Positions 2,444-52,853 of a DNA stretch of 64,000 nucleotides are shown here, piece after piece (the stretch's first letter is position 1; every line of letters begins with the position of its first letter). The translations under genes were made by a program, and so were the position numbers. Source of the DNA: Candidatus Omnitrophota bacterium (lineage in GTDB: Bacteria > Omnitrophota > Omnitrophia > Omnitrophales > Aquincolibacteriaceae). Below the pieces are notes generated by a model. It searched no databases and was not told the DNA's origin. It worked only from the letters and a program-made list of their open reading frames with translations. The stretch spans positions 2,767 through 66,766 of the forward strand of contig PLLJ01000045.1 of assembly GCA_003140935.1 (NCBI GenBank), written 5' to 3'.

Positions 2444-5400
2444 CTAAAATTTTCCGGTCATGCGCACAAACGGCCCATGACTTTTGAAACTATTCGTGTC
2501 ACGAAGGTCATCGCTGAAGTCAGTGAAATTATACCCCACCCCGAGCCGCACGTATTCATAAAATTCACGGTCAACTTCCACCAGGGCGCCTTGCTTCAAG
2601 GTATCCAAGGCATACGACTGCATCAGGATCCGGTACTCAAGCGCCAAGTCCCATTTGCGTGTCACGTGGAAATTGATGCGGTTCGCGGTCAGGAACGTGT
2701 TGACGTCCACCTTGTCGCCCACAGCGGAATTGACCACCGAATGTTTGAAGGCCAATTTCTCGGCCAAACCGAAATAGCGGTTCACGTCATAAGCCACATC
2801 AGTCGCAAGGATATGGGCCTCTTGGTCGAATTGGAAACCGTTGTATTGAGTGTCGTTGTATTGCTGGCTGGCGCCGACGTCCTTCAGAAAAGTGTACCGT
2901 GCCAATAAGTTCAGTTTATCAAGCTTGATGGGTCGGTAGGCAAACCCCGTACTGCCCTCCACAAAGTTCGCGGGAGTATTGGCCGGATCGTATTGACGGG
3001 TATCCCCGTAATTGAAGTAGGAAAGAAAACCCAGATCTTCGGTGATCTGGTAACTGAAAGAGTTGCGCGTGACGATCTGCGCCATTTTGGGGGCATCTTT
3101 ATCGCCGCGCAATTCCCAGTAGGTTCGCGCCCGGAACTTCTTCCCGCTCGCATAGGCGAGGTTGACGCCGGCGGTGTTGAAATCATTAGCGCGGGCAAGT
3201 GAATTCTGGGCCGCCTGATCGATCAGGCGCGTACTGGAATTCTCCAAGTGGCGGCGCTCGTACTTGGCTCCGTAATCCCAATGATCCCCTGCCTTTCCTT
3301 CATAACCCAGAATGTCCGCGAAGCCGTCGCTTCCCTGATAGGAGGAATATTCGCGTTCGGAATACATGCGCGATTTTTCGGTAAGCGCGAACGAATTTCC
3401 GATGGCCGTCGAAAGCGTCTTGTCCCCGATCCCGCGGTCTTCAGAACGGATGTTCGCATAACTCCGGGCGCCGTTCCCGTGCTGGCGCTCAAACCCGAAA
3501 TAGGTCGAATCCCCCAGAGGCCCGACCATTTCTTCCAGATAAGCAAAAAGATTATTCAAGATCTCATAACGCACGCCGCCGCCGAACTGCTGATCGCTCT
3601 TTCCGCCGATCGCGGTCTGGACCTTCACGTAAGGAAGCAGGCGATCGTTGATGTGATAGCCCAGTTTCCCCGTGACGCCGTTCTTAAAGGGGAACTGATT
3701 GGTGAGATCGGGTATCAGGTTCCCGACATCCTGCACCTCATCCAGATTGCGGCGTTGATATTCCAGTTCCGCGAGATATTTCGCGTCGTCATAAATGATC
3801 TGCGCGGTTTGGGTTTCGAGCGACTGGAACGGCTCCTGGGTATTCGTCACATCGAGCGGCATGAGCTGACTGAGGACCTCATTGCGATCGAAACGATAGC
3901 GAACGGACAAATTGTCCGTGAACTTGTACCGTGTGGCTAAGCCGTATTTTTCAAAACCTTCCTGATCCCGCATATAACCGTTCGAAAAACCCGGATTCAC
4001 GCCCTGGACATAACCGCTCGTTTCCAGTTTTTTTACAGGTTCTGAAGAGGCCTTGATGAGATAAGCGTCTTCCTGGGGCCGCGTATGCCTCCCGTTCAAA
4101 GGACCCAGACCCGCGTAGCTGATACCGCCGTCATAAGAGATCTCGGTCCCCGTCTGCTGGTTGATCGTTCTGGCATACTCCGCCGTGACCTTTGTGTTGC
4201 GTCCGAACTTCATCATGGCGTCCACGCCGGCCATGTCATAATCTCCACCGGGCCGGCTTTCCTGGACCCCGGTCGCGCCGATCCTTACGTGATCTCCCAT
4301 CCAGGTGTAGCCGCGTACGCCTTGGTTTGCGATCGAGGGGACCGCGTTGCTAGGGTCGAATTCATAATCGACGATCAAAACGACCGGACTCCCGTCCAGG
4401 ATGTCGGTCGAAGTCATCGTATCGGCCGCGGCCACGGAGGAAAGCGGCCGGGTAAGCATAATGCGGCCTTCGGGGTAATTGATCTCGTAATCCAAGCCCT
4501 CCTGCAGGTCATAACTGGAGACGGTCATATTCTGGATCTTGTCGCGGATCTCGACGCGGATCTTTTCGCTGCCTTCGATGATGTTACGGTTACGCGTGTA
4601 GAAAAGCGAACCGCCCGTGGCATAAAGCTCGTTATGGTCCGCCTGGTGCGAGGATTTTGCGCTAAAGACCTTGAACCCGCGTTTCGGATCGCCGTAGGCC
4701 GTGCTATCCACCGTATCAAAATTGATCTTCAGCCCAGAAAGCGTGCGGTTGTACGTGGCGAGCTCCGTATCCGTGAACTCGGTCTTGAAGCTTCCCCATT
4801 GGGCGTAGGAGCGGTCCATCTCGACCAGCACGTAAAGCTTTTGGGCCGTGTCCTGCGCCTGATAGTCGCGCGTCGAATTGTCCCCATAGATTGGATAATA
4901 GTCGTTCGGATTGAGGTTCGTGAAAAGCCCGTTGCGCTTATCGGCGGTGTCGTACTTGGCCTTCACAAGGAACTTGCCCTTGAGCTTGCCCTTCAAAAAG
5001 AAAGACGCACGCCCTTGTTCGCGGAACCCGTCGCGGTAAACCTCTGAGTCCGCGGCTTCCATCGCGCCGCTCGCCTCGTTCAGGCCCAACTGTTCTTCTC
5101 CCAAGGCCACCATGAAAAAGGTGCTGTCCTTCACCTTGATCTTCTTGTTGAAGCTTGTGGTCTCGCCCTCCGGCGTCGTGGCTGAAATAGCCACTTCATA
5201 TTCACCAGGCTCCACGAAGAATTCTTTCTGGAAGAGACCGCTTTCTCCGTCCACGGTCACGGGAGTATCGTTGATCATGATCTTATTTTTGGGTTGGGTC
5301 TTGCCCTGCACGCGGACCGTGGGCTTCGCCACAAGCGGAATGCTCCGCTGTCCGTCCTTCAAAAGATTGAAATCGCCGACCGGCGGGATCTCGGGATGGT

Positions 5401-11507: not shown

Positions 11508-11751
11508 AAGGCTTGCCAGTCTTTTGGTTACAAGCTGGTGTATTGTATCAAAAATCCTGGGAACGGGGAAAGGGAAACGCTTTTTTACCATGGGGACTCG
11601 GGACTTGTGCCTCGGGACTCGTTTAAAGAAGAATTTTCGAGTCCCTAGTCCCGTACTGAATGACGGGTAGAAATTAATGGTTATTCAGTACTGCACTGGC
11701 TTCCAATAAAAATTTCAATGAGAGCCAGGCGAACTACGAGTCTCGCGAAAA

Positions 11752-14446: not shown

Positions 14447-14581
14447 TTTCTCTTTCTCTCTCCGTCCGTTCAATGAAGAAGGGACGAATACTACATCAAA
14501 AAAAAATCCACAGCAAGAAATACCATGGGGAAAACGCGTCGGGGGAAGAGAACGGCGTCCCAATCCTCCGAGACATCTCAA

Positions 14582-14735
14582 GGGTTGATTGGGACTGTCC
14601 TAATACTTATCAATTTCCGCACAACGGAAATTGGGGCTGTCCAAGTCAGCCATCCTGGAAATAAAACGAAAGACTTGGACTGCACTGAACTTCCATTAGG
14701 TTTTATGGGTTGTTCAGTGCGGCCGGTTTATCGGA
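14582..14735 (+). repeat. R1 structured intergenic repeat (three consecutive hairpins); near-identical copy at 39681..39830
   Basis: caatttccgcacaacggaaattg; gtccaagtcagcc...(A-rich loop)...gacttggac; gcactgaac...gttcagtgc. About 90% identical to the copy at 39.7 kb. Confidence 0.8.
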
Positions 14736-15434
14736 TCATTTTTCTTCGAACCAGTCCACCTTGCCGGTCTTAACATCGTAGATCGCGAGAACGATCTTGA
14801 GCGTGCCTTGGGCGACCCGGTCCCGGATCTCTTCGCTGTTGGCCCGGAGGTCCCTTTCCACCTGGAAGACATTCTGTTTGATCACCTCATGGGTCAGCGC
14901 GGCGTCCTTCAGGTCCGGATTTTCCAGTTCTACTTCCTTCACGACGGGTATGATCTGTTCCTGAATATCGTGGAGACTCCCCTCAAGCTTCTCCCCCGAG
15001 ACCGCGGCCCCGACCGCTCCGCATTGCGTGTGACCCAGGACCACCAGCAGAGGCACATGCAAATGACCGGCCGCGTACTCCAGGGAACCGACCACACTGC
15101 TGTCCACGGCGATGTTCCCCGCGACCCGCACTACAAAAATATCTCCGATCCCCCGGTCAAAAACCGTTTCCACCGGCACCCTCGAATCCGCGCATCCGAG
15201 CACGACCGCAAACGGTTTTTGGCCGTTCACGGCGGTCTCTTCCCGTCTCGCATTATTTGCGTCGGGATGCTCCATCTTCATGGCGACAAAACGGGCGTTC
15301 CCTTCTTTGAGCAGCGCGAGCGCTTCCTCCGCGGTCTGTTCCGTGCCTTCGCCCGCGAACACCGGACCGGTCTGTGCTGCGATCCCTATCATCCCTATGG
15401 CAAAAAAAACGGCCCTGAAATTTTTTATCTTCAT
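14736..15434 (-). CDS. Beta-class carbonic anhydrase with signal peptide
   Basis: CADSRV...HTQCGAV zinc-ligand motifs; N-terminal signal MKIKNFRAVFFAIGMIGIAAQTGPVFA. Confidence 0.85.
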   Translation of the reverse strand: MKIKNFRAVFFAIGMIGIAAQTGPVFAGEGTEQTAEEALALLKEGNARFVAMKMEHPDANNARREETAVNGQKPFAVVLGCADSRVPVETVFDRGIGDIFVVRVAGNIAVDSSVVGSLEYAAGHLHVPLLVVLGHTQCGAVGAAVSGEKLEGSLHDIQEQIIPVVKEVELENPDLKDAALTHEVIKQNVFQVERDLRANSEEIRDRVAQGTLKIVLAIYDVKTGKVDWFEEK

Positions 15435-24916: not shown

Positions 24917-25199
24917 AGACCTTTTTCCCCTTTCTGCTTTTTGTCGAACGGTCCCATTTTCTCTTTCTTATTTTGACCGCCTTCGCGGAACCCCTTTATC
25001 AAATAGTAACACTATTTTACGAAGATAGGACGAAGAACAAAGCGTTTTGAGGATGAGTCGAACGGTGCTGTCCAACTTTGGGCTCTATATCCTATCCGCC
25101 AAATTTCGCGGACGGATCCGTCCACGCCGTGTGGCGGATAGGGTATAGGGTTTGTCACTCATTCCGGGGTATTGCGCTCGCTTTACGGAATCCCCTCTA

Positions 25200-25300: not shown

Positions 25301-25375
25301 AACATAACCCCGAGTCCCGAATCCCGAGTCCCTGTATTATTGTGTCTCGCGTCCCGAGTTGCGAGTCCCCCGCTT

Positions 25376-28007: not shown

Positions 28008-28246
28008 AACTTTTCTATCTGCGTGTTCCAAGCCCCTGAAACTATACGGGTCCCGCACTGAACAACCCATAAGACCTATTGGAAGTTTAGTGCGCCATGA
28101 TTCTCTTTTTTTAAAAAATAAACGGGTAATCATGACAGTCCAAGTCGCCATTCAAGAAAAAAATGAAGACTTGGGCGGCACTCGCTTTCGATAAAATATT
28201 TTAATGAGAGCCAGTGCCGAGTTACGAGTCCCGAGTCCCCGGAATT

Positions 28247-29383: not shown

Positions 29384-29491
29384 AGGCCTTCCGTCGCTAT
29401 CCCCTTTTAATGTCCTACGAGTCCCTAGTCCCGTCTTTATTTATCCCGAGTCCCTGTATTATTGTGTCCCGTGTCCCAAGTGCAGCGTCAT

Positions 29492-30702: not shown

Positions 30703-31297
30703 TTTTTTTATCCGGTCAATCGGCTCATCTATCTTTTTTCTGACTTTTTTCCTCTCCTCAACCAGGACAATGCCATGATTGATTTAAAAATAAAAAAGGC
30801 GCTACCGCTGTTATGAAGTTATCGACAATAGTAACGCCTCTATTGATAAAAACTCCCCCGCCTGCGATTAAACCGAATGTCGCTTTTGAGGGTAAATGCG
30901 GCATCGCATCCAAGGAATGGCTATTTCTGACGCGGATCGGACAAGATTGTCAAAATCTTGCCGAAGCCGCCCTGGTTTTACATTATTCAAATCAATCGGA
31001 AAACTAGGGCTGCACTAATTTTCTTTTAAAAAAATTTATCGAAAATCAGTGCGTACCAAAGCATTGGGCTTTGATGCATTCAACCGGTCCCCGGGGTGCC
31101 AGCTTGTCCGCCTCTGGCGGAGTACTGTTCTATTCCGCTTCCGGTTGCCATATATCATATCCGCCAAATTTCACGGACGAATCCGTCCACGCTGTGTGGC
31201 GGATATGATATACGGTCTGTCACCGCCCCGCGTCTTTTGTCCTCGTGCCCCGAGCTACGAGTCCCGAGTCCCGTCTTCATTTGTCCCGATTCCCCGT

Positions 31298-31834
31298 TTA
31301 TATCTTTTTCGATTCCTGTTCCAGGCGCTTCATTTCTTCCAGGCTCGAGTTCTCTTCCCCGGCAATCTGTTGTCGGTTGTCCCCATCTTTATTCGAGTCC
31401 CGAGGAGCGAGTCCCGAGTCCCGCGGTGTTTCGTTCGAGTCCCGAGCTACGAGTCCCGAGTCCCGTGGTTTTTCGTCCGTCGTCTTGGCCTCAGGGGAAG
31501 AAAGTCCTTTTTTTGAGTCCTGTTCCAGGCGCTTCATTTCTTCCAGACTCGGGTTCTTTTCCCCGGTAGTCTGTGGTCGGTTGTCCCCATCTTTATTCGA
31601 GTCTCGAGCTACGAGTCCCGAGTCCCTGTCTTTATTCGAGTCCCGAGGAGCGAGTCCCGAGTCCCGCGGCGTTTCGTCAGCCGCAGCTTTATTCGCTCGC
31701 CGGGCCGCGATCGCCGTCCTCGCCGCCCGGATGCCAAAGATCGCGTGCGCCGGAGGCGCTCCGAGAAGAAACGTCCCCGTCACCAGTCCCGCCATCACGA
31801 TTTTAAAAGTTTTCGACATCTCCAACCTCCCCAT
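31298..31834 (-). CDS. Secreted tandem-repeat protein (RDSGLAPRDSNKDGDNR repeats), encoded by a ~230-bp x2 tandem DNA repeat built from the GAGTCCCGAGTCCC motif
   Basis: Signal peptide MSKTFKIVMAGLVTGTFLLGAPPAHA; two ~80-aa repeat units; the underlying DNA is a tandem duplication. Confidence 0.5.
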   Translation of the reverse strand: MGRLEMSKTFKIVMAGLVTGTFLLGAPPAHAIFGIRAARTAIAARRANKAAADETPRDSGLAPRDSNKDRDSGLVARDSNKDGDNRPQTTGEKNPSLEEMKRLEQDSKKGLSSPEAKTTDEKPRDSGLVARDSNETPRDSGLAPRDSNKDGDNRQQIAGEENSSLEEMKRLEQESKKI

Positions 31835-31929: not shown

Positions 31930-32250
31930 CTATTGTTCTTCCCTCGACCCATTGATCTCATCGCCCCGCGAATATCGTGCGGTGTCTCCGGCCTTATAAT
32001 ATTTTGTGACGGAAATGACGAATTCTAAAAAGCCCCGCGCTTTGAGCTCATCCTTGATCTTCTCCAAAAGCTCCTGTCCCGGATCTTTCTGGCTCCATAT
32101 AAAAAAAGAGAGCGTATCTTTCCGGACGGTCAAATGGTCCACATTCTCATGGGCCCTTAAGATCTGTTCGAGAGGGTGCACATCCTCCAGACGCAGAAAA
32201 CGCGACGGGAATTTGATCTCAATGATCGTTAAAGTGTTTAAAAGTTTCAT
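31930..32250 (-). CDS. Small hypothetical protein (106 aa) tightly bracketed by 34-bp direct repeats
   Basis: MKLLNTLTIIEIKFPSRFLRLEDVHPL...; direct repeats at 31886..31919 and 32252..32286. Confidence 0.45.
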   Translation of the reverse strand: MKLLNTLTIIEIKFPSRFLRLEDVHPLEQILRAHENVDHLTVRKDTLSFFIWSQKDPGQELLEKIKDELKARGFLEFVISVTKYYKAGDTARYSRGDEINGSREEQ

Positions 32251-32358
32251 GCGTACTATTCTACGAAGGAACGGCGAAGAATAAAGCCTTTTGCGGATTA
32301 AAACAACAAACGGAGAAATCAAACAATGGAGTCATCCCTTCCCTCTTTTGGATGGCTG

Positions 32359-32970
32359 TCATCTTTTTTTCAGAGTAGCTTTGTCTTTATAGCTTGTACA
32401 TCGCACATAAAAATCAAATTGAATTAAAAAAAGAAGTATTGCGAACATAATTGTTAGAAATAAATTTTTCGTTAAACTTAATAATCCTATCGCTAATAAA
32501 GTCCCATTTAAAAAAGCCATTAAAAATACGAGGATCGGGAAATGATGCAAAAAACCTTCAAAATGTTTTGGCTCCTCATCGGTTATCGGCAACTTCAAGT
32601 ATTTTGTCAGATCGTCTTCCAGACTATTATCTGTGAAATACTTGCGAGTAAGGTTTGCGCTTTTTGCATAAAAAATCATCCGCATCCTAAGATTCATTAT
32701 GATCGCAAGGAAAATAACTCCTATAACAACTAAAAAAAGAACTATATAGACAAATGGCACTGGCAGATTATACAAGTCCCAAGTGATGGAGTTTATTTCT
32801 CTTGTTAATGCTAAGAATAAAGAAAGCGGAATCGCAATAACACCAAAATAATATTTAAATAATTGATAAAGAATTGTATATAAATGCTCGTAAAGCTCAT
32901 GCAAAAGCTTGTGCTCCTGCATCATAAATTCAAATTCTTGCTGAGCAGATAGTTGAGGATGTTTTTCCAT
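32359..32970 (-). CDS. 4-TM membrane protein, last gene of the AT-rich island cassette
   Basis: AT-rich codon usage; four hydrophobic helices; no recognisable family. Confidence 0.6.
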   Translation of the reverse strand: MEKHPQLSAQQEFEFMMQEHKLLHELYEHLYTILYQLFKYYFGVIAIPLSLFLALTREINSITWDLYNLPVPFVYIVLFLVVIGVIFLAIIMNLRMRMIFYAKSANLTRKYFTDNSLEDDLTKYLKLPITDEEPKHFEGFLHHFPILVFLMAFLNGTLLAIGLLSLTKNLFLTIMFAILLFLIQFDFYVRCTSYKDKATLKKR

Positions 32971-32990
32971 TGCTATCTTTAATGGGGTCG

Positions 32991-34070
32991 TTATTTCCTT
33001 CCCAATCTTTCTAATTCCCGGTTGTATGATTCAAAGCCATGTCTTATGACTATGTTTTGCTCTCGTACTTTTCTTCGAAAAAGTTTAACTTGCCAATCCA
33101 TCCAATTCTGATGAATAAAATAATCCGCAGAAGTCTGCGCGACTCTTGGGTTATAGTTATCGAACGTTTGATTTAAAGGCCGATAACGGCAATCAGCGGT
33201 TTGAACTCCCCATTTTTTACATTCTTTAATTTTTTGCAACATTTCATAAAAATCATGTTCGAAGTTAGATATCATGAACACGTACATCTCTTTTGCTCTG
33301 TATCCGGCTTCGATCAGCATCTCGATTTGTTTTTTTATCATTTGGCGCTGGGAATATCCATGATCCCAAGCGATCCTCGGGTTAAGAAAATGTGCCTGCT
33401 TCAACAATTTCGCCAATTCTGGCGTCAAAAGCCTCCCGTCAATTCCGCACTGACTTTCAGAATAGACCGCTCGCCCATTGCACTTCGCATTCTTCAATTC
33501 ATCCAAAATGTCTTTTATATATGGATTAGCTAAAAGATTATTATCGTAAAAAATTACCCTATTGCTACAAATCTCATCTTTGATACTTTTTTTGGGAATA
33601 AATTCGGGCTCGATTTTCCAAGTTCCGCAGAATTTACATTTTCGCACACATCCTCTTGAAGAATGAACGATCTGATAATCGACATCAACTAAACTGTAAT
33701 CTGGCGCAGATGCTTCCGCCTTTGGATCCACGCCAACAAAAACTTTATCGCATTCAGATTGTTTACAGTGGTCTGGCATGAGTGATGCATAAATGCCACC
33801 GACAGTTATATGGGCCCTGGGATAATTCTTTTTGTAGAATTTCACACTATCCCACACGTATTTGGACCAATAGGTAAATAGAGAGGTAATCTTAATTTCA
33901 TCCGGACAAAACTCTCCAACCAGCTTGTCCCCTCGCACAAGTCGGACTTTATCACCATTTGCTTTGTGGTAACTGGCTAGCTTGAGTAAGCCAACAGGCA
34001 AAAAATCTCGGTGATTTTTGCTTTTTGCTGGAATCGGAAAACCTGGTTCCACTAATAATATTTTAGACAT
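32991..34070 (-). CDS. Radical SAM enzyme with N-terminal B12-binding-like (Rossmann) domain
   Basis: KILLVEPGFP...PVGLLKLASYH...HITVGGIYASLMPD (B12-binding-like); SSRGCVRKCKFCGTW (CxxxCxxC). 8-nt overlap with the upstream HD gene. Confidence 0.75.
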   Translation of the reverse strand: MSKILLVEPGFPIPAKSKNHRDFLPVGLLKLASYHKANGDKVRLVRGDKLVGEFCPDEIKITSLFTYWSKYVWDSVKFYKKNYPRAHITVGGIYASLMPDHCKQSECDKVFVGVDPKAEASAPDYSLVDVDYQIVHSSRGCVRKCKFCGTWKIEPEFIPKKSIKDEICSNRVIFYDNNLLANPYIKDILDELKNAKCNGRAVYSESQCGIDGRLLTPELAKLLKQAHFLNPRIAWDHGYSQRQMIKKQIEMLIEAGYRAKEMYVFMISNFEHDFYEMLQKIKECKKWGVQTADCRYRPLNQTFDNYNPRVAQTSADYFIHQNWMDWQVKLFRRKVREQNIVIRHGFESYNRELERLGRK

Positions 34071-35583
34071 TTTTATTTAACAAGGTTTCTGGTAATTTCA
34101 ATTTAATGCCATTAAATTTTATATTATTCATAACATCTTTGTACTCGGGGAGTTTTCGAGCTAATTGCTCAGGATTAGCCCATCGGACTTTAACTTCAGC
34201 GTAATTATCTTCAAAACGGAAACCATCAAAAATGGCAAATTCCGCCGTTTCTTCGAAAGAACCGTTTCTTTTCCAATCATGTATGCTATCTAAAAAAATT
34301 AATAATACGGCGAAAGGGAAACGAGAAATATTAATCGGGAAGACTTCATGCTTTCTGAGTTCTTTCCAGATTCTGCTGTCATGTAGCGCAATAGAAGTAA
34401 CCGCTGGTATAACATGGGTAACAATTAACGGCCTATTGGGACGGCTGGTCACGACTTTTGATTCGCGTAAAACTCTCACAAGAAATTGAAAACATCCTGT
34501 TACTCCATGCGATCTATGTTTTATCAAATGTTCTCGTAGTATGTCCTTGATACTAGAATCCTCATCTTCTGACATTTCGGGCGTCCAATTATTAAGGATA
34601 CGTTCGGAACAACAATGTCGAATGAAGGATTGTAATTGTATCGCAGCCTGCAAATAATCACTTTTATCAGCGATCTTTTCCAAACCAATTAGTTCTATAT
34701 CCTCATTGTACCCGTACATTTCGCCAATTAAGTTGCCTGCTTTTTGCGAAGGGTAACCAATATCATGGAATATAGAAGTAATTAACCAGATGTATTCGAT
34801 GGAAAAATCTTTTTCCCGAGGAAAAACATTTTTATAATATTTTTGAAATTCCGCATAGTATTTATCGATTATTACGCATCCCATTAACATAACTTGAAAA
34901 GAATGCAAATAATGCTCACGCGTGCCCTTCAATAAGGGCTCATAATATTTCAGCCTCAAGTAAGGTTCCGAAGAATAATGAAATCTTTTATTATCAAAGA
35001 TTTTCTTTATCGTCAAATCAACTAATTCGTATTCCTCCTCTGAGATATTTTTTGTTTTTCTTAATCGTGAATATTTCGATACAAAATCCTTTAGGATTTG
35101 GCGGTATGAAATATTGTCCAAATCGCCAACGTACGATAAAAGCTTATTTGGAACATGTCCATGCTCAGAAGCCGCCTTCTTTTTTATTAGTTGTTTATAT
35201 TTTTTTCCACTAATTGCTTTGGCTTTAATATCAAGAAGTACGGAAAGCGAAGAATTGCTTAACTGAATTAGCCCAAATCCATTATTGAAACATTCAGAAA
35301 ATATCTGATCATATTCATATTCCGGCGGAATATAATAATAAAATTCAAAATTTTTAATTTGTTTTTTTGCTTTGATGATTTCTTTAGCGCCATTCGCTGG
35401 AAAAGCATTGCTTGTATTTATATCAATTGAAATTAATTTGGACTTATAGCGGTAAAGAAGATCTGGGCTCCACGCAATACCTCTTAAAATCCGATCTCCA
35501 GCCTTTTGGGAAAGTCTTCGCCAGTTGTATTTTTTCACTAAAATTTTATTGAGTTTATCTAGAAAAATTTCTTTTTTTGACAT
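34063..35583 (-). CDS. HD-domain phosphohydrolase (506 aa) with dNTP-triphosphohydrolase-like motifs and an uncharacterised ~220-aa N-terminal region
   Basis: TREHYLHSFQV (compare dGTPase RLTHSLEV), SIFHDIGYP (HD), later HRSHGV and LDSIHDW. Confidence 0.7.
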   Translation of the reverse strand: MSKKEIFLDKLNKILVKKYNWRRLSQKAGDRILRGIAWSPDLLYRYKSKLISIDINTSNAFPANGAKEIIKAKKQIKNFEFYYYIPPEYEYDQIFSECFNNGFGLIQLSNSSLSVLLDIKAKAISGKKYKQLIKKKAASEHGHVPNKLLSYVGDLDNISYRQILKDFVSKYSRLRKTKNISEEEYELVDLTIKKIFDNKRFHYSSEPYLRLKYYEPLLKGTREHYLHSFQVMLMGCVIIDKYYAEFQKYYKNVFPREKDFSIEYIWLITSIFHDIGYPSQKAGNLIGEMYGYNEDIELIGLEKIADKSDYLQAAIQLQSFIRHCCSERILNNWTPEMSEDEDSSIKDILREHLIKHRSHGVTGCFQFLVRVLRESKVVTSRPNRPLIVTHVIPAVTSIALHDSRIWKELRKHEVFPINISRFPFAVLLIFLDSIHDWKRNGSFEETAEFAIFDGFRFEDNYAEVKVRWANPEQLARKLPEYKDVMNNIKFNGIKLKLPETLLNKNV

Positions 35584-35593
35584 ATATTTGGAA

Positions 35594-36592
35594 TTATTTG
35601 TTATTTATCATTTGGTCAATGGTGTCTCGAAGTTTTTTTAAAGAAACCAAGATTCCTTCCTTTCTTTTTTTATCAGTTTCCTTCTTTAAATCAAACTCAG
35701 ATAGCTGTGAATTTAATTTATTAATATTTTTAATTAATGAACGGCTTGTTGTTTTGCTGGTCAAGGTGGGTATTTGTACTTTTTTAGTTAAGTCGTTTTT
35801 CAAGTCTTCGATTGTATACTCGATGTTTTCAATAAATCTTTTTGCTGAAGCAGCAAAAATTTCGATTTTGTCCAACTTCTTGCAAGTCATGATGGCATCG
35901 GGTATCCAAAAGAATGCGCGAGTTGTCCCAAGAAGACCTTTTTCTGCTTTCGCTATAAGCTTCCCTCTAATTTCTTCCCTCGAGTGATCCTTAAAAGTTT
36001 GGGGTATGTTTTTTTCTAACTGTTCAACAAAATTTTGTTCTATCTGCACAAGGTAACTGTCATCCAGCTTATTCTCCATAACTTTTTCTTGCGTTTCTTT
36101 ATTAAACCTCAAAAGCCGCAATCTATCTTCGACCTTTTTTCCGTCCATTTTGGTTATCTTTGCTATTTCGCCAATTAGGTCTTGATCGGTTATCGATTTG
36201 TTTTTTCTTTTTATCAAATCAACATAGAATTTTAGCGCTTGGGCTTGCGCCATCGGCTCCCATTGTTCTCTCAGCATGTGAATTTGAAACATTCGTTTTA
36301 AGCCTTCCCCTTGGGCTTTGGCTTTTTTAATGGCCAACACATGGATGGGCACGCCTTCTCGTTTAACTTTTTGAGCAGCTTTAAGCCGTCTTTCGCCATC
36401 GAGCAAAATATATTTTTTGCCTTTTTTGCTATCGTTTTTAAAAACGATCAAAGGCACCATGACTCCAAATTGCCGAATGGATTCCTCTAGTGCTATGAAA
36501 TCCTTATCCTCATAATCCTGGCCTCTGGGATTATCTGGATTGAAAGCTATATCATTAGGAGAAACATACCTGATCTGCTCGTTTTTATTCAT
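35594..36592 (-). CDS. ParB/Sulfiredoxin-like N-terminal domain protein with Lys-rich helical C-terminal half
   Basis: VSPNDIAFNPDNPR...LEESIRQFGVMVPLIV...YILLDGERRLKAAQ (ParB box motifs); GGAGG RBS 6 nt upstream. Confidence 0.75.
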   Translation of the reverse strand: MNKNEQIRYVSPNDIAFNPDNPRGQDYEDKDFIALEESIRQFGVMVPLIVFKNDSKKGKKYILLDGERRLKAAQKVKREGVPIHVLAIKKAKAQGEGLKRMFQIHMLREQWEPMAQAQALKFYVDLIKRKNKSITDQDLIGEIAKITKMDGKKVEDRLRLLRFNKETQEKVMENKLDDSYLVQIEQNFVEQLEKNIPQTFKDHSREEIRGKLIAKAEKGLLGTTRAFFWIPDAIMTCKKLDKIEIFAASAKRFIENIEYTIEDLKNDLTKKVQIPTLTSKTTSRSLIKNINKLNSQLSEFDLKKETDKKRKEGILVSLKKLRDTIDQMINNK

Positions 36593-36761
36593 TCTATACC
36601 TCCATTTATTCCATAAATCATTTAAGATTTTTTATCTTTGTAGACGGAATCGATCCTACTTTCTTTCGTAAGTCAACGGAACACCGTCTGGGGAAAGACG
36701 TTAACTCCCCAATCTTATAGACGCACTCTTCGTTACAGGCAAGGGGAAAAAAGAAACCGCC

Positions 36762-37211: not shown

Positions 37212-37267
37212 GTGAATCCCCCCTTTTCTTTAAAAAGTTTTTCCGTTTTGGACTAGTACTGTTCTCC

Positions 37268-37412
37268 ATTTGATTTTCCGCCACAATTCTTCGGACGGAT
37301 CCGTCCTTTGGCGGATAGGGGTTAACAGCACTTGTTCTCAAAAAAAACTTAAAGGTTAACAAGTGCTGTCCAAGTCGCCCTTAATAAAATAAAAACGAAG
37401 ACTTGGGCCGTA
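37268..37412. repeat. Composite of an R2 palindromic element (ccgccacaattcttcggacggatccgtcctttggcgg) plus an R1-type H1 hairpin (gtccaagtcgcc...gacttgggc)
   Basis: Inverse-orientation match to 52722..52830. Confidence 0.7.
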
Positions 37413-37452
37413 CTGTGTACCGCATACCCTTAATTTCAAATGTGATGCGGTG

Positions 37453-37926
37453 CTAGAGACCTTGCTGCACGGGCGAGCTTGAGCCTCCGCTGCCCAGCAT
37501 AAAAGTATACTCCGTCGGTGACTCTGCGGAGACATGGACCGGCGTCTCTTTCGAAGCATAGCCCGTAGCACTCAGCGTAAGCAGGACCTGGAAACCGGAC
37601 TGCGGGAAAGGGCTTTTTCCGTCGAACGGGACCTGGCTCATTTCGCCGTCCTTGGTCATTCCGCTGAGCGTGAACCCCATGAAATCTTTCACGGGAAAGA
37701 ACGCGATCCCTTCCCGGTTAACCGCCGCCGTTCTCGTCACGTTAGAGGCCGCTAGCGTATCTCTCATTTCGATCTGTCCCGCGGAAGGCACGACGTTCCC
37801 CGACTCTTCACGCACGATGACCTTGAGCGAGGGCGCTGCCTCCTCAGCCTTCAAAGGCAGGGTCACGCCCCAAAAAACCAGGATCGCCAGTATCCATCCC
37901 GTTCTTAAGGTCCTCAGGTTTCTCAT
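37453..37926 (-). CDS. Secreted protein, unknown
   Basis: ORF track to 38037. Likely start MRNLRTLRTGWILAILVFWGVTLPLKA at 37926. Confidence 0.5.
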   Translation of the reverse strand: MRNLRTLRTGWILAILVFWGVTLPLKAEEAAPSLKVIVREESGNVVPSAGQIEMRDTLAASNVTRTAAVNREGIAFFPVKDFMGFTLSGMTKDGEMSQVPFDGKSPFPQSGFQVLLTLSATGYASKETPVHVSAESPTEYTFMLGSGGSSSPVQQGL

Positions 37927-38207: not shown

Positions 38208-39560
38208 TCACCTTTGCATACGAACAGCGTGCCCTTTTTCCAGGAGTTCCTGGTTCACGTAAGTCCCGCCGGCCCAAATGTCGACCAGGTACCTGTCGTA
38301 TTTGTCGGACTTGACGGTCTTGATGAGGATTTGCGCGCTGATTTTTCCATCCGCCATTTTCAACATCTTCTCCATGGCTTCTTTCGCTTCTTTTCCTTCC
38401 TTGCTCACGAGCTCGGGGGCGTCGAGACCGCGCAGGCGCAGGGTCTGCACGCTGCGCACGCCGAAGCCCAGATCGACCACCGCTTCGATCGTGTCGCCGT
38501 CGAGAATGCGGAACACCCAGGCGCGGTAAGTAAAAAGGTCGGCGGAGGTCCGTTTCGAGAGTTTGATCAGATCCGAGGGCGCGGAACCCGCTCCCGGGAA
38601 CGCGGGCATCACTTCGATGATCGCCCCTTCCTTGAAACGGAGGTCCCGGGACGTCCGGTAATAATTGGAGAACCCGAGGTCGATCACCGCCTTGCCGGTC
38701 TCGGGGCCCGCGGCGGCTTTGACGATCTTATAAGTCCCGGGCTTCCCCGGCTTGGCCGTGAGCGGGGTTTCTTTCACCGGCGCCGGCGCCTCATTTTTCG
38801 CGGCCTTGCGCTTTTTCACTTCTTCACGTACCTGGTCGCGGGTCCAGTTTTCTTTTTCAGCCATGGCCGCGACCTCGTCTTGCTCCTTGATATCATTCAG
38901 CGAAAGAAGCTCCTCATAATGGCTCCAGCTCAATTTTCCCGCGGGCGGGGAAATCGGGTAATCGCGGGCGAACTGAAGCATGGCGTACAGCTGGGTCTCG
39001 CTGATGGGCAAGTCTCCGGACAATCTTAAGATCACCTGCTTGCCGTAATCCGCGCGCTCCTTGTGCTGGAGCACGTGCTCGTCGATCAGTTTGCCGATCT
39101 CCCACGCCTCGCGGACTTTTTCCTGTTGGGCGGCCTGCTCCACACGGGCCTCGCTGGCCGCGTGGGCCTTGCGAATGGCGGCGACGAGCTGCTCGTAAGT
39201 TCCAACCTGGGTCGCGAGCACTGTAGACGATGGTCCCAAATCGTCACCGGGCCGTGCCTGTTCACGGCGCTCTTCAGCCGTCCCTGTGGGACTGGGAACA
39301 GGCGAGGTCTGGACCTGCGGCGCGGGCACTGTAGACGATTGTCCCAGATCGTCACTGTGCCGTGCCTGTTCACTGGGAACAGGTGCGGGGACCGGCGGGT
39401 TCATCGAAGGGACCTGCCCTGAGCTTGCCGAAGGGGCCTGCGAAGACGAGGACTTCAAGTCCCCGCGAGCGTGCTGAGGAACCGGGTCCTCAGCCTGCAA
39501 GGACGGGGATATCCAGAGGAGCGTGAGGAAAATACCGAGGGTGATCGTCGTCGTCTTCAT
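38208..39560 (-). CDS. Secreted multidomain protein: signal peptide, low-complexity duplicated segment, YhcG/DUF1016-N-like helical domain, and C-terminal staphylococcal-nuclease (SNase)-like domain
   Basis: MKTTTITLGIFLTLLWISPSLQA signal. Two copies of ARxxDDLGxSSTVxAxQV. SNase-like GDTIEAVVDLGFGV...LRGLDAPE...DKYDRYLVDIWAGG. Confidence 0.65.
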   Translation of the reverse strand: MKTTTITLGIFLTLLWISPSLQAEDPVPQHARGDLKSSSSQAPSASSGQVPSMNPPVPAPVPSEQARHSDDLGQSSTVPAPQVQTSPVPSPTGTAEERREQARPGDDLGPSSTVLATQVGTYEQLVAAIRKAHAASEARVEQAAQQEKVREAWEIGKLIDEHVLQHKERADYGKQVILRLSGDLPISETQLYAMLQFARDYPISPPAGKLSWSHYEELLSLNDIKEQDEVAAMAEKENWTRDQVREEVKKRKAAKNEAPAPVKETPLTAKPGKPGTYKIVKAAAGPETGKAVIDLGFSNYYRTSRDLRFKEGAIIEVMPAFPGAGSAPSDLIKLSKRTSADLFTYRAWVFRILDGDTIEAVVDLGFGVRSVQTLRLRGLDAPELVSKEGKEAKEAMEKMLKMADGKISAQILIKTVKSDKYDRYLVDIWAGGTYVNQELLEKGHAVRMQR

Positions 39561-39680
39561 TCCAAAGGTCCTTTCTTCTATGTAAGGCGTACGGTGTACG
39601 GAGTACGGCGTCCCGCCTGTCGTTCCTGTTCAAAAAAGGCGGGGCAGTGCGTCCCAACCTTCCCATCCATTTTAAAGGCC

Positions 39681-39830
39681 GGTTGAGACTGTCCTAATAC
39701 TTATCAATTTCCGCGCAACGGAAATTGGGGCTGCCCAAGTCAGCCATTCTGGAAATGAAACAAAAGACTTGGACTGCACTAAACTTCATTTAAGCTTTAT
39801 GGGTTGTTCAGTGCGTCCGTTTAAGGAGTT
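39681..39830 (+). repeat. R1 structured intergenic repeat, second full copy
   Basis: About 90% identity to 14582..14735 across all three hairpins; its 3' end supplies the stop codon region of the adjacent gene. Confidence 0.8.
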
Positions 39831-40159
39831 TCCTGCGTCTCTTCCGGGTTCGTTTCTTCTTTTACCGGGGTCCCGAGGGGTTGGGCGGCCTCCAGATCGT
39901 CGATCCGGGATTCCAATTCCGCGTCCTGCCGGACCATGTACTTCATTTTGGAATCGTTCGTGTCGAGCCTGTTTTCCAATTGGCTTATTTTTGCCGCGAG
40001 GGCTTCCATTTTCGAGCCGCTCGCCTTGGCCTTGTTTTCCAATGCGTTCACCCTGGCCTCCAAAATGTCCGTACGGAAAGTATCCTCGACCGCGAGGACC
40101 CGGGTACCCGGAAGAAGCCCAAAGATCAGACAGAACGCGATTAGCAGTTTCTTCTTCAT
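39821..40159 (-). CDS. Secreted coiled-coil protein
   Basis: Signal MKKKLLIAFCLIFGLLPGTRVLA; heptad-rich body. Confidence 0.55.
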   Translation of the reverse strand: MKKKLLIAFCLIFGLLPGTRVLAVEDTFRTDILEARVNALENKAKASGSKMEALAAKISQLENRLDTNDSKMKYMVRQDAELESRIDDLEAAQPLGTPVKEETNPEETQETP

Positions 40160-40334
40160 TTCAGATCTCCTCTTTTTTTAGGGGATGCCTGCGGACAAAC
40201 GGGAAAGCCGGGGATAGAAGGAAGAACGTGAGGAGCCTGCCGGAAGGAGCTGTCTTTTTCATGACAAGAAGCCCAAGGTTCACGGAACGATAGACGGAGA
40301 ACGATCCGTGAGGCGTTCCCCGTTCGCACGGTTT

Positions 40335-40739
40335 CTAAATACTTTTCTGCGTTTCTTGCGGGTCCGTTCTTTTTTTAGATTTGTCCCCGGAGTTTTTCGT
40401 CTCGTTTTGGGCGGTCTCCAGATCGCTGACCCGGGATTCTAATTGGATCTCGTTCATCCGGGCCGCCAGGTTTCCCATTTTGGAGGTATTCGCGCCGACC
40501 CTGCCTTCCAATTGGTTCATTCTTGAATTTGAGATGTTCGCGCCGATCCTGCCTTCCAATTGGCTCATTCTTGACTCTAAGGTTCGCATCTTCGCGTCGC
40601 TCGCTTTAGCCTTCTCTTCCAATTCCTGCACTCTGTTGTTTACAGAGTACGTGCGGTTCGCATCATCGAACGCAAAGACCCGGGCACTTGGAAGAAGTAA
40701 AAAGACCAGACCGGACACGAGAAGTATTTTCTTGTTCAT
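40335..40739 (-). CDS. Secreted coiled-coil protein, tandem paralogue of 39821..40159
   Basis: Signal MNKKILLVSGLVFLLLPSARVFA; shares the EEKAKASxxKM...SQLEGR pattern and a similar upstream region (ttcagNtctcctttttt). Confidence 0.55.
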   Translation of the reverse strand: MNKKILLVSGLVFLLLPSARVFAFDDANRTYSVNNRVQELEEKAKASDAKMRTLESRMSQLEGRIGANISNSRMNQLEGRVGANTSKMGNLAARMNEIQLESRVSDLETAQNETKNSGDKSKKRTDPQETQKSI

Positions 40740-40830
40740 TTCAGCTCTCCTTTTTTATTTCATGAATGCGAACGGACGAGAAAGCCGGAGCTTCGTTTTA
40801 ATCTCTTAAGTTAAACCCGTTCTGCCGCCG

Positions 40831-51525: not shown

Positions 51526-51842
51526 TTTAGTATGTTTTTCTCCTTAAGGACATTCAAACTATCGAGTTCGGTATTATAGAAATGGCTCTATCCTTTGTCA
51601 ATTTAAGAAGTTACGCCATGACCCTCTTTGATCAAAAGAACGGGAGGCCATGACAGCCCAAGTCACCCTCATGAAAAAGAAATAAAGGCTTGGGCGCAAA
51701 ATGACCATTGGGACCGTCTTTTTCGATGATATGCTCTATCCCCTATTCCCAGAACCACTTACGTGATTTTCTCCATTGACAGGAACGCAGAAAACTCCTA
51801 TCCTTGTCCTCGATTTTATTTCTTAACGGGTGACAAGGATTG

Positions 51843-51890
51843 CCCCAATTTCAACTCCGTTGAAATTGATAAGAATTGGGACTATGTTAC
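51843..51890 (+). repeat. H0-type hairpin repeat (ttgccccaatttcaactccgttgaaattgat..gaattgggactatgt) immediately upstream of rnc
   Basis: About 90% identical to 59919..59962, with compensatory changes in the stem (aac/gtt versus atc/gat). Confidence 0.7.
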
Positions 51891-51894
51891 GCAC

Positions 51895-52644
51895 ATGTCG
51901 AAGCTGATATCCCCCAAAGATCCTCAGAGCAGGGCCTCTTTGCGTAAGATCCTCGGATTCCCGGTGAGGTCCCTCACTCTCTACCGCGCCGCGCTCACGC
52001 ATCCCTCTTTCCGCAATGAGAACGCGCGCATCACCCAAGACCTCGAGGATTTTGACCGGCTGGAATTCCTCGGAGATTCCATTTTAAATGAGGTCATTTG
52101 TCAGAAATTGTTCGAGAAATTCCCCGAGGCCGACGAAGGCATGCTCTCCAAGCTCCGCTCGATCCTCGTCTCTCAGAAGATCTTGAGCCGTATCGCGCAA
52201 GCCCTGGAGCTTCAACACGTCCTCCGGATCAGCAGAAACCTGCGCCAGAATTTCAAGGACTTTCTTAAAGCCAAACTGCTTACCGACGCGCTCGAGGCGC
52301 TTTTCGCGGCGATCTATTTCGATCGCGGCCACGACAAGATCGAGGCGTTCATTCTGAAACATTTCGAAAAATACTTTGATCCCAAACTCCTCTTCCGGCT
52401 CGACCCGAACCCCAAGAGCACGCTTCAGGAAATGACGCTCAAGAAATGGCAGAAGCTCCCGGAATACACGCACGCCTTTTCCGACAAGGGCGTCAAGACC
52501 ACGGTTTCGGCCGGGGGGAGACGCAAGGCTTCGGCCCTTCACAAGATCAAGCGGGAGTCCGAGGTCTTGGCCGCCAGGGCTTTGATCCGGCGGTTACGGA
52601 AAGAGTTTAAAAAAGTGAAGTCGCGCGGCCGGCGACGCGCCTAG
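51895..52644 (+). CDS. rnc: Ribonuclease III
   Basis: ORF track from 51763. Likely start MSKLISPK at 51895. DRLEFLGDSIL signature; degenerate C-terminal dsRBD. Confidence 0.85.
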   Translation: MSKLISPKDPQSRASLRKILGFPVRSLTLYRAALTHPSFRNENARITQDLEDFDRLEFLGDSILNEVICQKLFEKFPEADEGMLSKLRSILVSQKILSRIAQALELQHVLRISRNLRQNFKDFLKAKLLTDALEALFAAIYFDRGHDKIEAFILKHFEKYFDPKLLFRLDPNPKSTLQEMTLKKWQKLPEYTHAFSDKGVKTTVSAGGRRKASALHKIKRESEVLAARALIRRLRKEFKKVKSRGRRRA

Positions 52645-52721
52645 TGCCGCATCACGTTTGAAATTAGGGGTATGCGGTACAGCACTTGATTTTCATCCAA
52701 AAAATGATAGGAAATCAGTGC

Positions 52722-52830
52722 AGTCCAAGTCACCATCCATGTGAAGAAATAAAGACTTGGGCAGTACTGTTAACCCCTATCCGCCGAAGGACGGATCCGT
52801 CCGAAGAATTGTGGCGGAAAATCAAATGGA
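52722..52830. repeat. H1 hairpin + R2 palindromic element composite (inverse of 37268..37412)
   Basis: gtccaagtcacc...gacttgggc, then cccctatccgccgaaggacggatccgtccgaagaattgtggcgg. Confidence 0.7.
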
Positions 52831-52853
52831 GAACAGTGCTAGCCAAGAAAAAA

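Follow-up and report, generated by a model that had tools for sequence, protein, structure and literature searches.

R1, the element of three consecutive hairpins flagged at 14582-14735 of the 64,000-nucleotide stretch of Candidatus Omnitrophota DNA analyzed here (the window), is probably one composite of a clade-specific family of mosaic hairpin repeats, dispensable and self-propagating DNA of the BIME/BOX kind. The constant piece of the family is a hairpin designated H2 (stem GYCCAAGTC/GACTTGGRC, 22-nt A-rich loop), and our verdict is that H2 and its partners make up a new family of BIME/BOX-like mosaic repeats. Orthologous spacers are the strongest evidence. Between the same genes, the spacers of related genomes are empty or differently filled, and the modules are dispensable DNA. 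The units amplify in tandem with a period of 82-86 nt and lie in either orientation relative to transcription. The sites at which modules occur in the window are as follows.

14555-14735, + strand: composite copy A, with H0 (14557-14595), H1 (stem 14611-14619/14625-14633), H2 (14639-14680) and H3 (14682-14720); its neighbors are the stop TGA of a carbonic anhydrase gene (14736-14738, - strand) and the start ATG (14446-14444) of a homospermidine-synthase-like (HSS) gene.
28055-28176, + strand: site C, with an inverted H3 (28055-28093), Hx of flavor ii (catgatt/aatcatg, 28095-28134) and H2 (28138-28176).
37246-37476, + strand: site D, with module X (37246-37331), Hx of flavor iii (37325-37369), H2 (37368-37408) and module Y (37411-37476).
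39649-39830, + strand: composite copy B, with H0 (39651-39689), H1 (~39705-39727), H2 (39733-39774) and H3 (39776-39814); its neighbors are a small coiled-coil gene (TAA 39821-39823) and a DUF1016_N+SNase gene (start 39560).
51615-51695, + strand: site E, with Hx (catgacc/ggccatg, 51615-51654) and H2 (51656-51695), directly upstream of the argC TTGACA-17-TATAAT.
51798-51887, - strand: site E2, with H1 (51843-51887), then an H2 variant with the compensated stem CCTTGTC/GACAAGG (51798-51842).
52641-52849, + strand: site F, with Y' (52641-52683), Hx of flavor iii (52680-52723), H2 (52723-52762) and X' (52763-52849).
59873-59957, - strand: site G, an inverted H1 (~59910-59950) joined directly to an X'-type hairpin, with no H2.

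Copies A and B are 91.3% identical without gaps over their hairpins (14597-14722 and 39691-39816), which bears out the two near-identical three-hairpin copies described in the earlier note; over that note's own coordinates the identity is 86% (135/157 columns). The similarity begins ~27 nt further left than first reported, at 14555 and 39649, and takes in an additional left hairpin, H0 (gtcccaatc...gattgggac, 14557-14595 in A). Folding of either strand far exceeds that of shuffled sequences (z = -5.8 and -6.4). The genes beside A and B are unrelated, and the copies are therefore not duplicated gene ends, the case that the earlier note had itself held up against its reading. Of the stop codons that the full copies were said to supply, the TAA of B (39821-39823) is part of the repeat only in its poorly conserved tail, and the TGA of A falls just outside the repeat. 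Stop donation is clearest at site F, where the RNase III stop is the TAG of Y' (52642-52644) and the element ends the gene four codons earlier than in an element-free relative. All six contigs with the neighboring gene, from several public assemblies, are 99.995-100% identical to the window and offer no strain-level polymorphism to compare. Beside copy B, 39821-40809 holds two to three tandem small coiled-coil genes with internal DNA repeats of 48 and 224 nt and only weak Pfam matches.

The recurrence of the middle hairpin, H2, at 28138, 37368, 51656 and 52723 was reproduced, the pattern CCAAGTC-N5-35-CTTGG matching 11 times over the two strands where 0.2 matches are expected. When a covariance model is trained solely on copies from elsewhere than this genome, it recovers precisely these six + strand H2 sites of the window, at 43-58 bits. 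The statement that H2 lies on the same strand each time holds for these six copies and fails for a seventh, the stem-swapped copy on the - strand at site E2 (51798-51842), which scores 22 bits (E 0.002) and lies in the 5' leader of the RNase III gene. H2 was also said to recur alone outside the full copies; in fact a second hairpin precedes every H2, and further repeat modules flank the pair. The preceding hairpin is H1 in A and B and Hx at the remaining sites. The inner stem of Hx, TGATTCTC/GGGTAATCA, is common to sites, and its outer base pairs vary (catg, cactg, ccctg).

The flanking hairpins of ~40 nt (H0, H3, X, Y) change order and orientation between sites. H3, for example, lies 3' of H2 in A and B, and inverted and 5' of the Hx-H2 pair at 28055. 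At site F, X and Y have traded places and are inverted relative to site D, around an Hx-H2 core of unchanged orientation. Module X of site D holds a nested palindrome (tccgcc..ggacggatccgtcc..ggcgga); the loop of X' at site F likewise carries a 39-nt palindrome (52780-52818), which X' copies of other genomes lack. Site G has H1 and X' without H2, so the modules occur independently of one another. On the gene side, 53 of the 54 predicted genes of the window lie on the - strand. The sole + strand gene is that for RNase III (51895-52644), with repeat sites E/E2 on one side and F on the other. The ATG at 51895 is the probable true start of this gene, a longer ORF from 51763 traversing repeat modules.

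Across species the H2 consensus reads cagt CCAAGTC RCCATTNATGAAAAGAAAATAAA GACTTGG gc, with a 9-bp stem (13-19 bp at most when extended) and a conserved A-rich loop of 17-24 nt. The earlier note called this loop variable; its consensus RCCATTNATGAAAAGAAAATAAA is common to different species, so the loop is not variable, and it is conserved as much as the stem. Copies from one genome are barely more alike than copies from different species, at 62% against 57% over those loop positions that are unconstrained. Hairpins of the H2 type also swap the entire stem and keep the loop (CCAAGTC, CCTTGTC, CCCAACT, CCTGATT), and the variant stems are fully compensated. The c:g/t:g covariation proposed for the H2 stem dissolves in the larger sample, in which the two positions vary independently: among 107 distinct copies the Y/R pairs are T.G 61, T-A 25, C-G 13 and C.A 8, where independence predicts ~59, 27, 15 and 7. 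It is the Hx stem that covaries, with double changes in six of seven pairs and 55 cells as compared with 14.8 in shuffles; none of 500 shuffles reaches 55 cells, and slid controls collapse. The Hx palindrome is thus maintained. The same result is expected of a DNA palindrome, so covariation does not tell RNA from DNA. A mini-ORF in the loop (ATG AAA AGA AAA TAA) was rejected, as it is present in fewer than half of the copies and hence not conserved.

In one genome per GTDB species, the strict H2 pattern, which fixes the H2 stem and part of the loop and by which the copy set was ascertained, matches 105 stretches. About 95 lie in ~19 Candidatus Omnitrophota MAGs, and ~9 are chance matches inside genes of other phyla; the genomes compared are MAGs. 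Proteins common to the H2-bearing MAGs and the window are 70-95% identical, and the H2-bearing group is therefore a clade of genus-to-family level. Metagenomes from sludge, groundwater and sediment samples add at least 120 further H2 matches. The density is 6-7 copies in the 64 kb of the window and reaches 13 strict-pattern loci in one MAG; besides the canonical copies, a model search of the loci gives ~35-40 further sites that are weaker, variant or decayed. Head-to-tail Hx-H2 arrays comprise four 82-nt units at one locus (L075; L numbers denote the loci compared) and run at 84-86 nt in L089, L103 and L068, and other arrays consist of hairpins that retain the loop on different stems (CCTGATT, CCCAACT, CCTTGTC). 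The dispersed repeat proposed in the earlier note is thereby substantiated, with many further copies in related genomes, unrelated flanking genes, and presence or absence at orthologous sites.

The orthologous spacers record gain, loss and replacement of these modules. The site F spacer runs from the RNase III gene to an AsmA-like gene; the element is absent there in L069 (12-nt spacer), L237 (9 nt) and L239, the last of which has an unrelated hairpin at the position. At the argC/argJ junction, the window, L237 and L239 have overlapping genes (TTGA); in L109 the two genes are separated by a 165-nt Y'-core-X' element that supplies a TAG stop and abuts the GTG start, and in L069 by Y'X' without a core plus another insertion. 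The RtcB spacer is 22 nt in the window and holds X-core-Y in L031. Site E is absent from L237, L239 and L069. In the spacer between the RNase III gene (rnc) and argC, the perfect TTGACA-17-TATAAT (~51572-51600, - strand) and the rnc start region are kept in L069, L237 and L239; between these anchors the window has Hx-H2 and an inverted H2v-H1, L069 and L239 have gtacgg-type palindromes, and L237 has neither. The relatives that lack or replace elements in these comparisons have flanking proteins ~90% identical. The H2 upstream of the HSS gene, by contrast, has one position and orientation in the window and L011, with differing neighbors, and H2 is kept again in the orthologous trio L059/L075/L098, where its partner is flavor ii in tandem or flavor i.

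A palindromic repeat of gtacggtgtacgg-like units was also seen (window 39585-39612; L069 4860-4925; L239 ~2310-2400; L009). In relatives it fills spacers in which the window has H2 modules.

Tests that DISCRIMINATE an RNA gene from a DNA repeat comprised gene orientation, GC skew, folding, covariation, Rfam, and promoter and terminator scans. Genes were called with our own codon-usage finder, which matches strand and stop for every complete gene on L001, with a few starts differing. Among 116 classified copies, those between co-directional genes have the same sense in 39 cases and the opposite sense in 35; divergent spacers account for 11 and convergent ones for 3, and 8 copies overlap a predicted gene. 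Given no orientation bias across the classified copies, the six-for-six + strand placement in the window looks like a local accident. The orientation of H2 against local GC skew divides 58 to 52, and 37 copies lie closer to the upstream stop and 37 closer to the downstream start. Folding energies of the two strands are indistinguishable (top better in 53 units, bottom better in 53). Choosing a strand by G.T versus A.C asymmetry was rejected, as no asymmetry was seen. Many copies fill entire operon spacers with a free flank of 3-40 nt, which leaves no room for a promoter, and consensus scans gave no sigma-70 promoter-like site in either locus scanned. Terminator scans gave a few terminator-like matches, without a stem-plus-T-tract signature for these hairpins. 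Rfam returned only noise, for the whole window at the gathering threshold and for the locus at a permissive E-value. The earlier note had offered a REP/MITE-like element or a family of small structured RNAs; the dispersed repeat survives from this pair, the REP label does not, and a small-RNA family is disfavored by random orientation, equal folding, tight flanks and the Rfam result. A role as a DNA uptake sequence (DUS/USS) was likewise rejected: CCAAGTC occurs outside the hairpins three times on the + strand and three times on the - strand, against ~4 expected per strand.

Certain observations run counter to the repeat reading, namely the conservation of the loop, the 62% versus 57% similarity, and the retention of H2 at two orthologous positions. 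These fit selection on individual copies and a conserved 'master' sequence equally well. The lack of an IS or transposase partner in the flanking DNA searched, and of a captured insertion with a clear target duplication, also weighs against the repeat reading. As an alternative, the modules could be cis-acting RNA hairpins in polycistronic mRNAs, selected for a host function such as 3'-end protection, segmental stability or processing, for example by RNase III. Roles of this kind (3'-end protection, stability, processing) are established for some E. coli REP/BIME copies. Copies inside operons are necessarily transcribed, compensatory change maintains the stems, a stem would form in either orientation and so would explain the absent polarity, and H2 persists at the two orthologous sites. 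Nonetheless, orthologous spacers between proteins ~90% identical do without elements or carry unrelated ones, the T-tract signature of terminators is missing, and half of the transcripts would carry a U-rich loop in place of the A-rich one, which leaves the conservation of the loop unexplained. We consider such a role unlikely, if less so than any other alternative weighed here.

On the preferred reading of a self-propagating mosaic repeat, modules of ~40 nt (H0, H1, Hx, H2, H3, X, Y and others) would accumulate, duplicate head-to-tail, nest and exchange within spacers. Spread would require hairpin formation in single-stranded DNA, with stems that keep their pairing through compensatory changes, and new cores may land at junctions or in the loops of other hairpins. 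It could proceed by a putative trans-acting enzyme that recognizes the H2 stem and loop, or, alternatively, one copy could serve another through template switching or gene conversion. Lying inside operons, the modules are transcribed passively, and effects on mRNA such as stop-codon supply or 3'-end protection would be a by-product.

Nesting and element ends bear on this scheme. Hx-H2 cores sit in the loop of an aggggacaggc...gcctgtcccct hairpin that is present and empty in L239. This terminator-like hairpin is another dispersed module in its own right (L239 1427-1470; L043, L071, L072, L105), and its loop holds a core in four loci. Most cores are bracketed by direct repeats of 6-8 nt (CAGYACT, GYCATGA, AGCCCTG) that match the outer 5' arm of Hx, and the C/T variant of these repeats agrees on both sides in 11 of 13 flavor-ii copies. 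The flanking repeats fit target duplication and a leftover of tandem register alike; since the heptamers are also the outer arm of Hx, they could reflect the register of tandem units and not a target duplication. The compared loci yielded neither a recent insertion that shows a clear-cut target duplication nor a closely matched empty and filled pair. As for a MITE, the Y'...X' composites begin and end with inverted ends containing (C)TAG, the repeats flanking the core overlap the Hx stem, and no parent IS for a MITE origin was found near the elements.

A different use of the same hairpins is conceivable, in which H2, with an invariant 22-nt loop and a stem replaceable by compensated variants, is the recognition hairpin for exchange of the neighboring ~40-nt 'cassettes', or a binding array for a loop-specific host factor. 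Such an exchange would amount to site-specific recombination through hairpins of single-stranded DNA, a loose parallel to the exchange of cassettes at attC sites. If true, it would explain why H2 is kept at orthologous positions with differing partners, why Hx varies within H2-Hx-H2-Hx arrays, and why different species share the conserved loop. We regard this as doubtful, and more so than a role in mRNA.

The mobilization of true REP elements by a RAYT (IS200-like Y1 transposase) encoded elsewhere in the genome appears improbable. The hairpin dependence and clustering of the family do resemble REP/BIME, and RAYT-like Y1_Tnp genes are common in Omnitrophota. Neither the window nor 0.68 Mb of genome loci with H2 contains an IS200/RAYT ORF, and ~0.7 Mb of flanking DNA yielded no IS, transposase or other multicopy gene as a partner. 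With an IS200 seed and the RayT profile as queries, the matches were limited to L186 and a fragment in L199. The Y1_Tnp gene (Pfam 26.5 bits) of L186, a metagenome locus, lies ~170 nt away from an array of H2 and H1. Homologues of this gene are frequent in Omnitrophota, and one (P0149) is on a contig of an H2-bearing MAG. The RAYT-like genes inspected, all in related Omnitrophota, are listed below.

L186 1118-1939: RAYT-like Y1 transposase gene.
L232 ~3870-3990: RAYT-like Y1 transposase gene.
L235 ~3890-3935 and 4745-4790: RAYT-like Y1 transposase gene.

All three are flanked by a short-loop, GC-rich palindrome of their own and not by H2 (CAATTCCCGGAATTG; ACACACCCGGTGTGT; CAACACCGGG..CCCGGTGTTG). 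A REP-type palindrome at each RAYT-like gene indicates that the clade has classical REP/RAYT systems alongside the H2 family, and membership of H2 in a REP/RAYT system is therefore not supported. The transposase search suggested in the earlier note thus came out against a RAYT or IS200 partner in the window and in the H2-bearing genome loci. The REP label also falls on structure. The bases upstream of H2 are CAGT, CCGT or CTGY, with no GTAG-type 5' tetranucleotide; the 22-nt loop is long and conserved; and H2 copies, which are extragenic and numerous as REPs are, lie head-to-tail in the arrays seen and not as inverted doublets (REPINs).

One further candidate partner, the DUF1016_N+SNase gene beside copy B (also in L038, L011, L033 and L052), was set aside. 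Its product has a signal peptide and the gene lies 0.1-1 kb from the elements; without a fixed geometry to them it was judged unrelated. The window gene (38208-39560, - strand) encodes a secreted fusion of DUF1016_N and staphylococcal nuclease with a proline-rich repeated N-terminus (internal repeat 39205-39373). Homologues occur in several H2-bearing loci (L038 twice, L123, L197).

Binding sites of a DNA-structuring host protein (nucleoid-associated, gyrase or IHF-like), recognized as duplex or as a cruciform with an A-tract spacer, are a still less probable account of the family. Gyrase and IHF bind BIMEs. The elements are similarly intergenic and neutral in orientation, and their inverted 9-mers flank a phased A-rich tract conserved across species. 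Against this, the loop is kept while the whole stem is swapped, which fits recognition of structure plus loop and not of duplex half-sites, and copies are dispensable at orthologous sites. Multicopy, independently transcribed small RNAs, such as a sponge presenting the same A-rich loop on many stems, are very improbable: conserved loops on variable stems and the several-hairpin arrays of some loci recall CsrB-type sponge RNAs, but many copies have just the 3-40 nt of free flank, the scans gave no consensus for a promoter or terminator, the strands fold alike, orientation follows no pattern, Rfam has no match, and copies are gained and lost between close relatives.

The mosaic repeat that we favor shows modular hairpins in variable combination, tandem amplification, intergenic location, restriction to a clade and dispensability at orthologous sites. 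It shares with enterobacterial REP/BIME the short extragenic palindromic units, the mosaics with linker motifs, the tandem amplification, the location in operons and at gene ends, the orthologous spacers of variable composition, and passive transcription. BIME units differ in that they alternate in orientation and have short loops, a GTAG-type foot and a RAYT gene flanked by the same REP, whereas the H2 family has head-to-tail units, a conserved 22-nt A-rich loop, and RAYT genes in its clade that carry other palindromes. The BOX elements of S. pneumoniae (boxA-boxB(n)-boxC) are likewise modular, with a repeatable middle module, predicted stable hairpins, an intergenic location and the lack of a transposase of their own. 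In BOX, both the A-B-C order and the sequence are fixed, whereas a constant H2 is combined with at least four flavors of partner hairpin and with several outer modules in either order and orientation, and the two share no sequence relationship. The small dispersed repeats and nested mini-MITEs of Nostocales and the Correia elements of Neisseria are similar in being very small, inserting into one another and into hairpin loops, being clade-restricted, and being able to give stop or start signals to neighboring genes. They differ in having well-defined inverted repeats at their termini and target duplications (TA in Correia elements), in contrast to the degenerate 6-8-nt flanking repeats of the H2 core.

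No description of intergenic repeats in Omnitrophota was found in the searchable literature. The phylum is known almost only from metagenome-assembled genomes, for which a catalogued repeat family helps explain assembly breaks and short contigs and provides strain-typing markers. A catalogue also prevents mis-annotation, as gene callers extend ORFs into the elements, which also contribute stop and start codons to genes. A long, conserved loop on a constant hairpin, interchangeable partner hairpins and nesting in hairpin loops are unusual for bacterial repeats, and these three features together point to a hairpin-dependent mechanism of propagation.

Other repeats and an atypical region were noted in the window. 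A palindromic element (tccgcc..GGACGGATCCGTCC..ggcgga) occurs at 25086-25158 and 31151-31223 (89% identical) and at 1445-1474, 37277-37303 and 52780-52818; it is free-standing or nested in the loops of X modules, and as a short GC-rich palindrome it resembles the RAYT-flanking REPs of related Omnitrophota more than H2 does. A second repeat family is built on GAGTCCCGAGTCCC (25306-25369, 28213-28239, 29415-29457 and 31229-31677; inverted at 11593-11629) and includes a tract of ~450 nt at 31.2-31.7 kb that is tandem-like and apparently does not code for protein. The family is almost restricted to this genome, with two matches in 0.75 Mb of related loci. Finally, 32000-36600 is a low-GC island (0.34-0.38, compared with ~0.55 elsewhere) in which a codon model trained on the remaining sequence predicts no genes from 32250 to 35594. 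From its low GC and the outcome of the codon model, the island was probably acquired horizontally.
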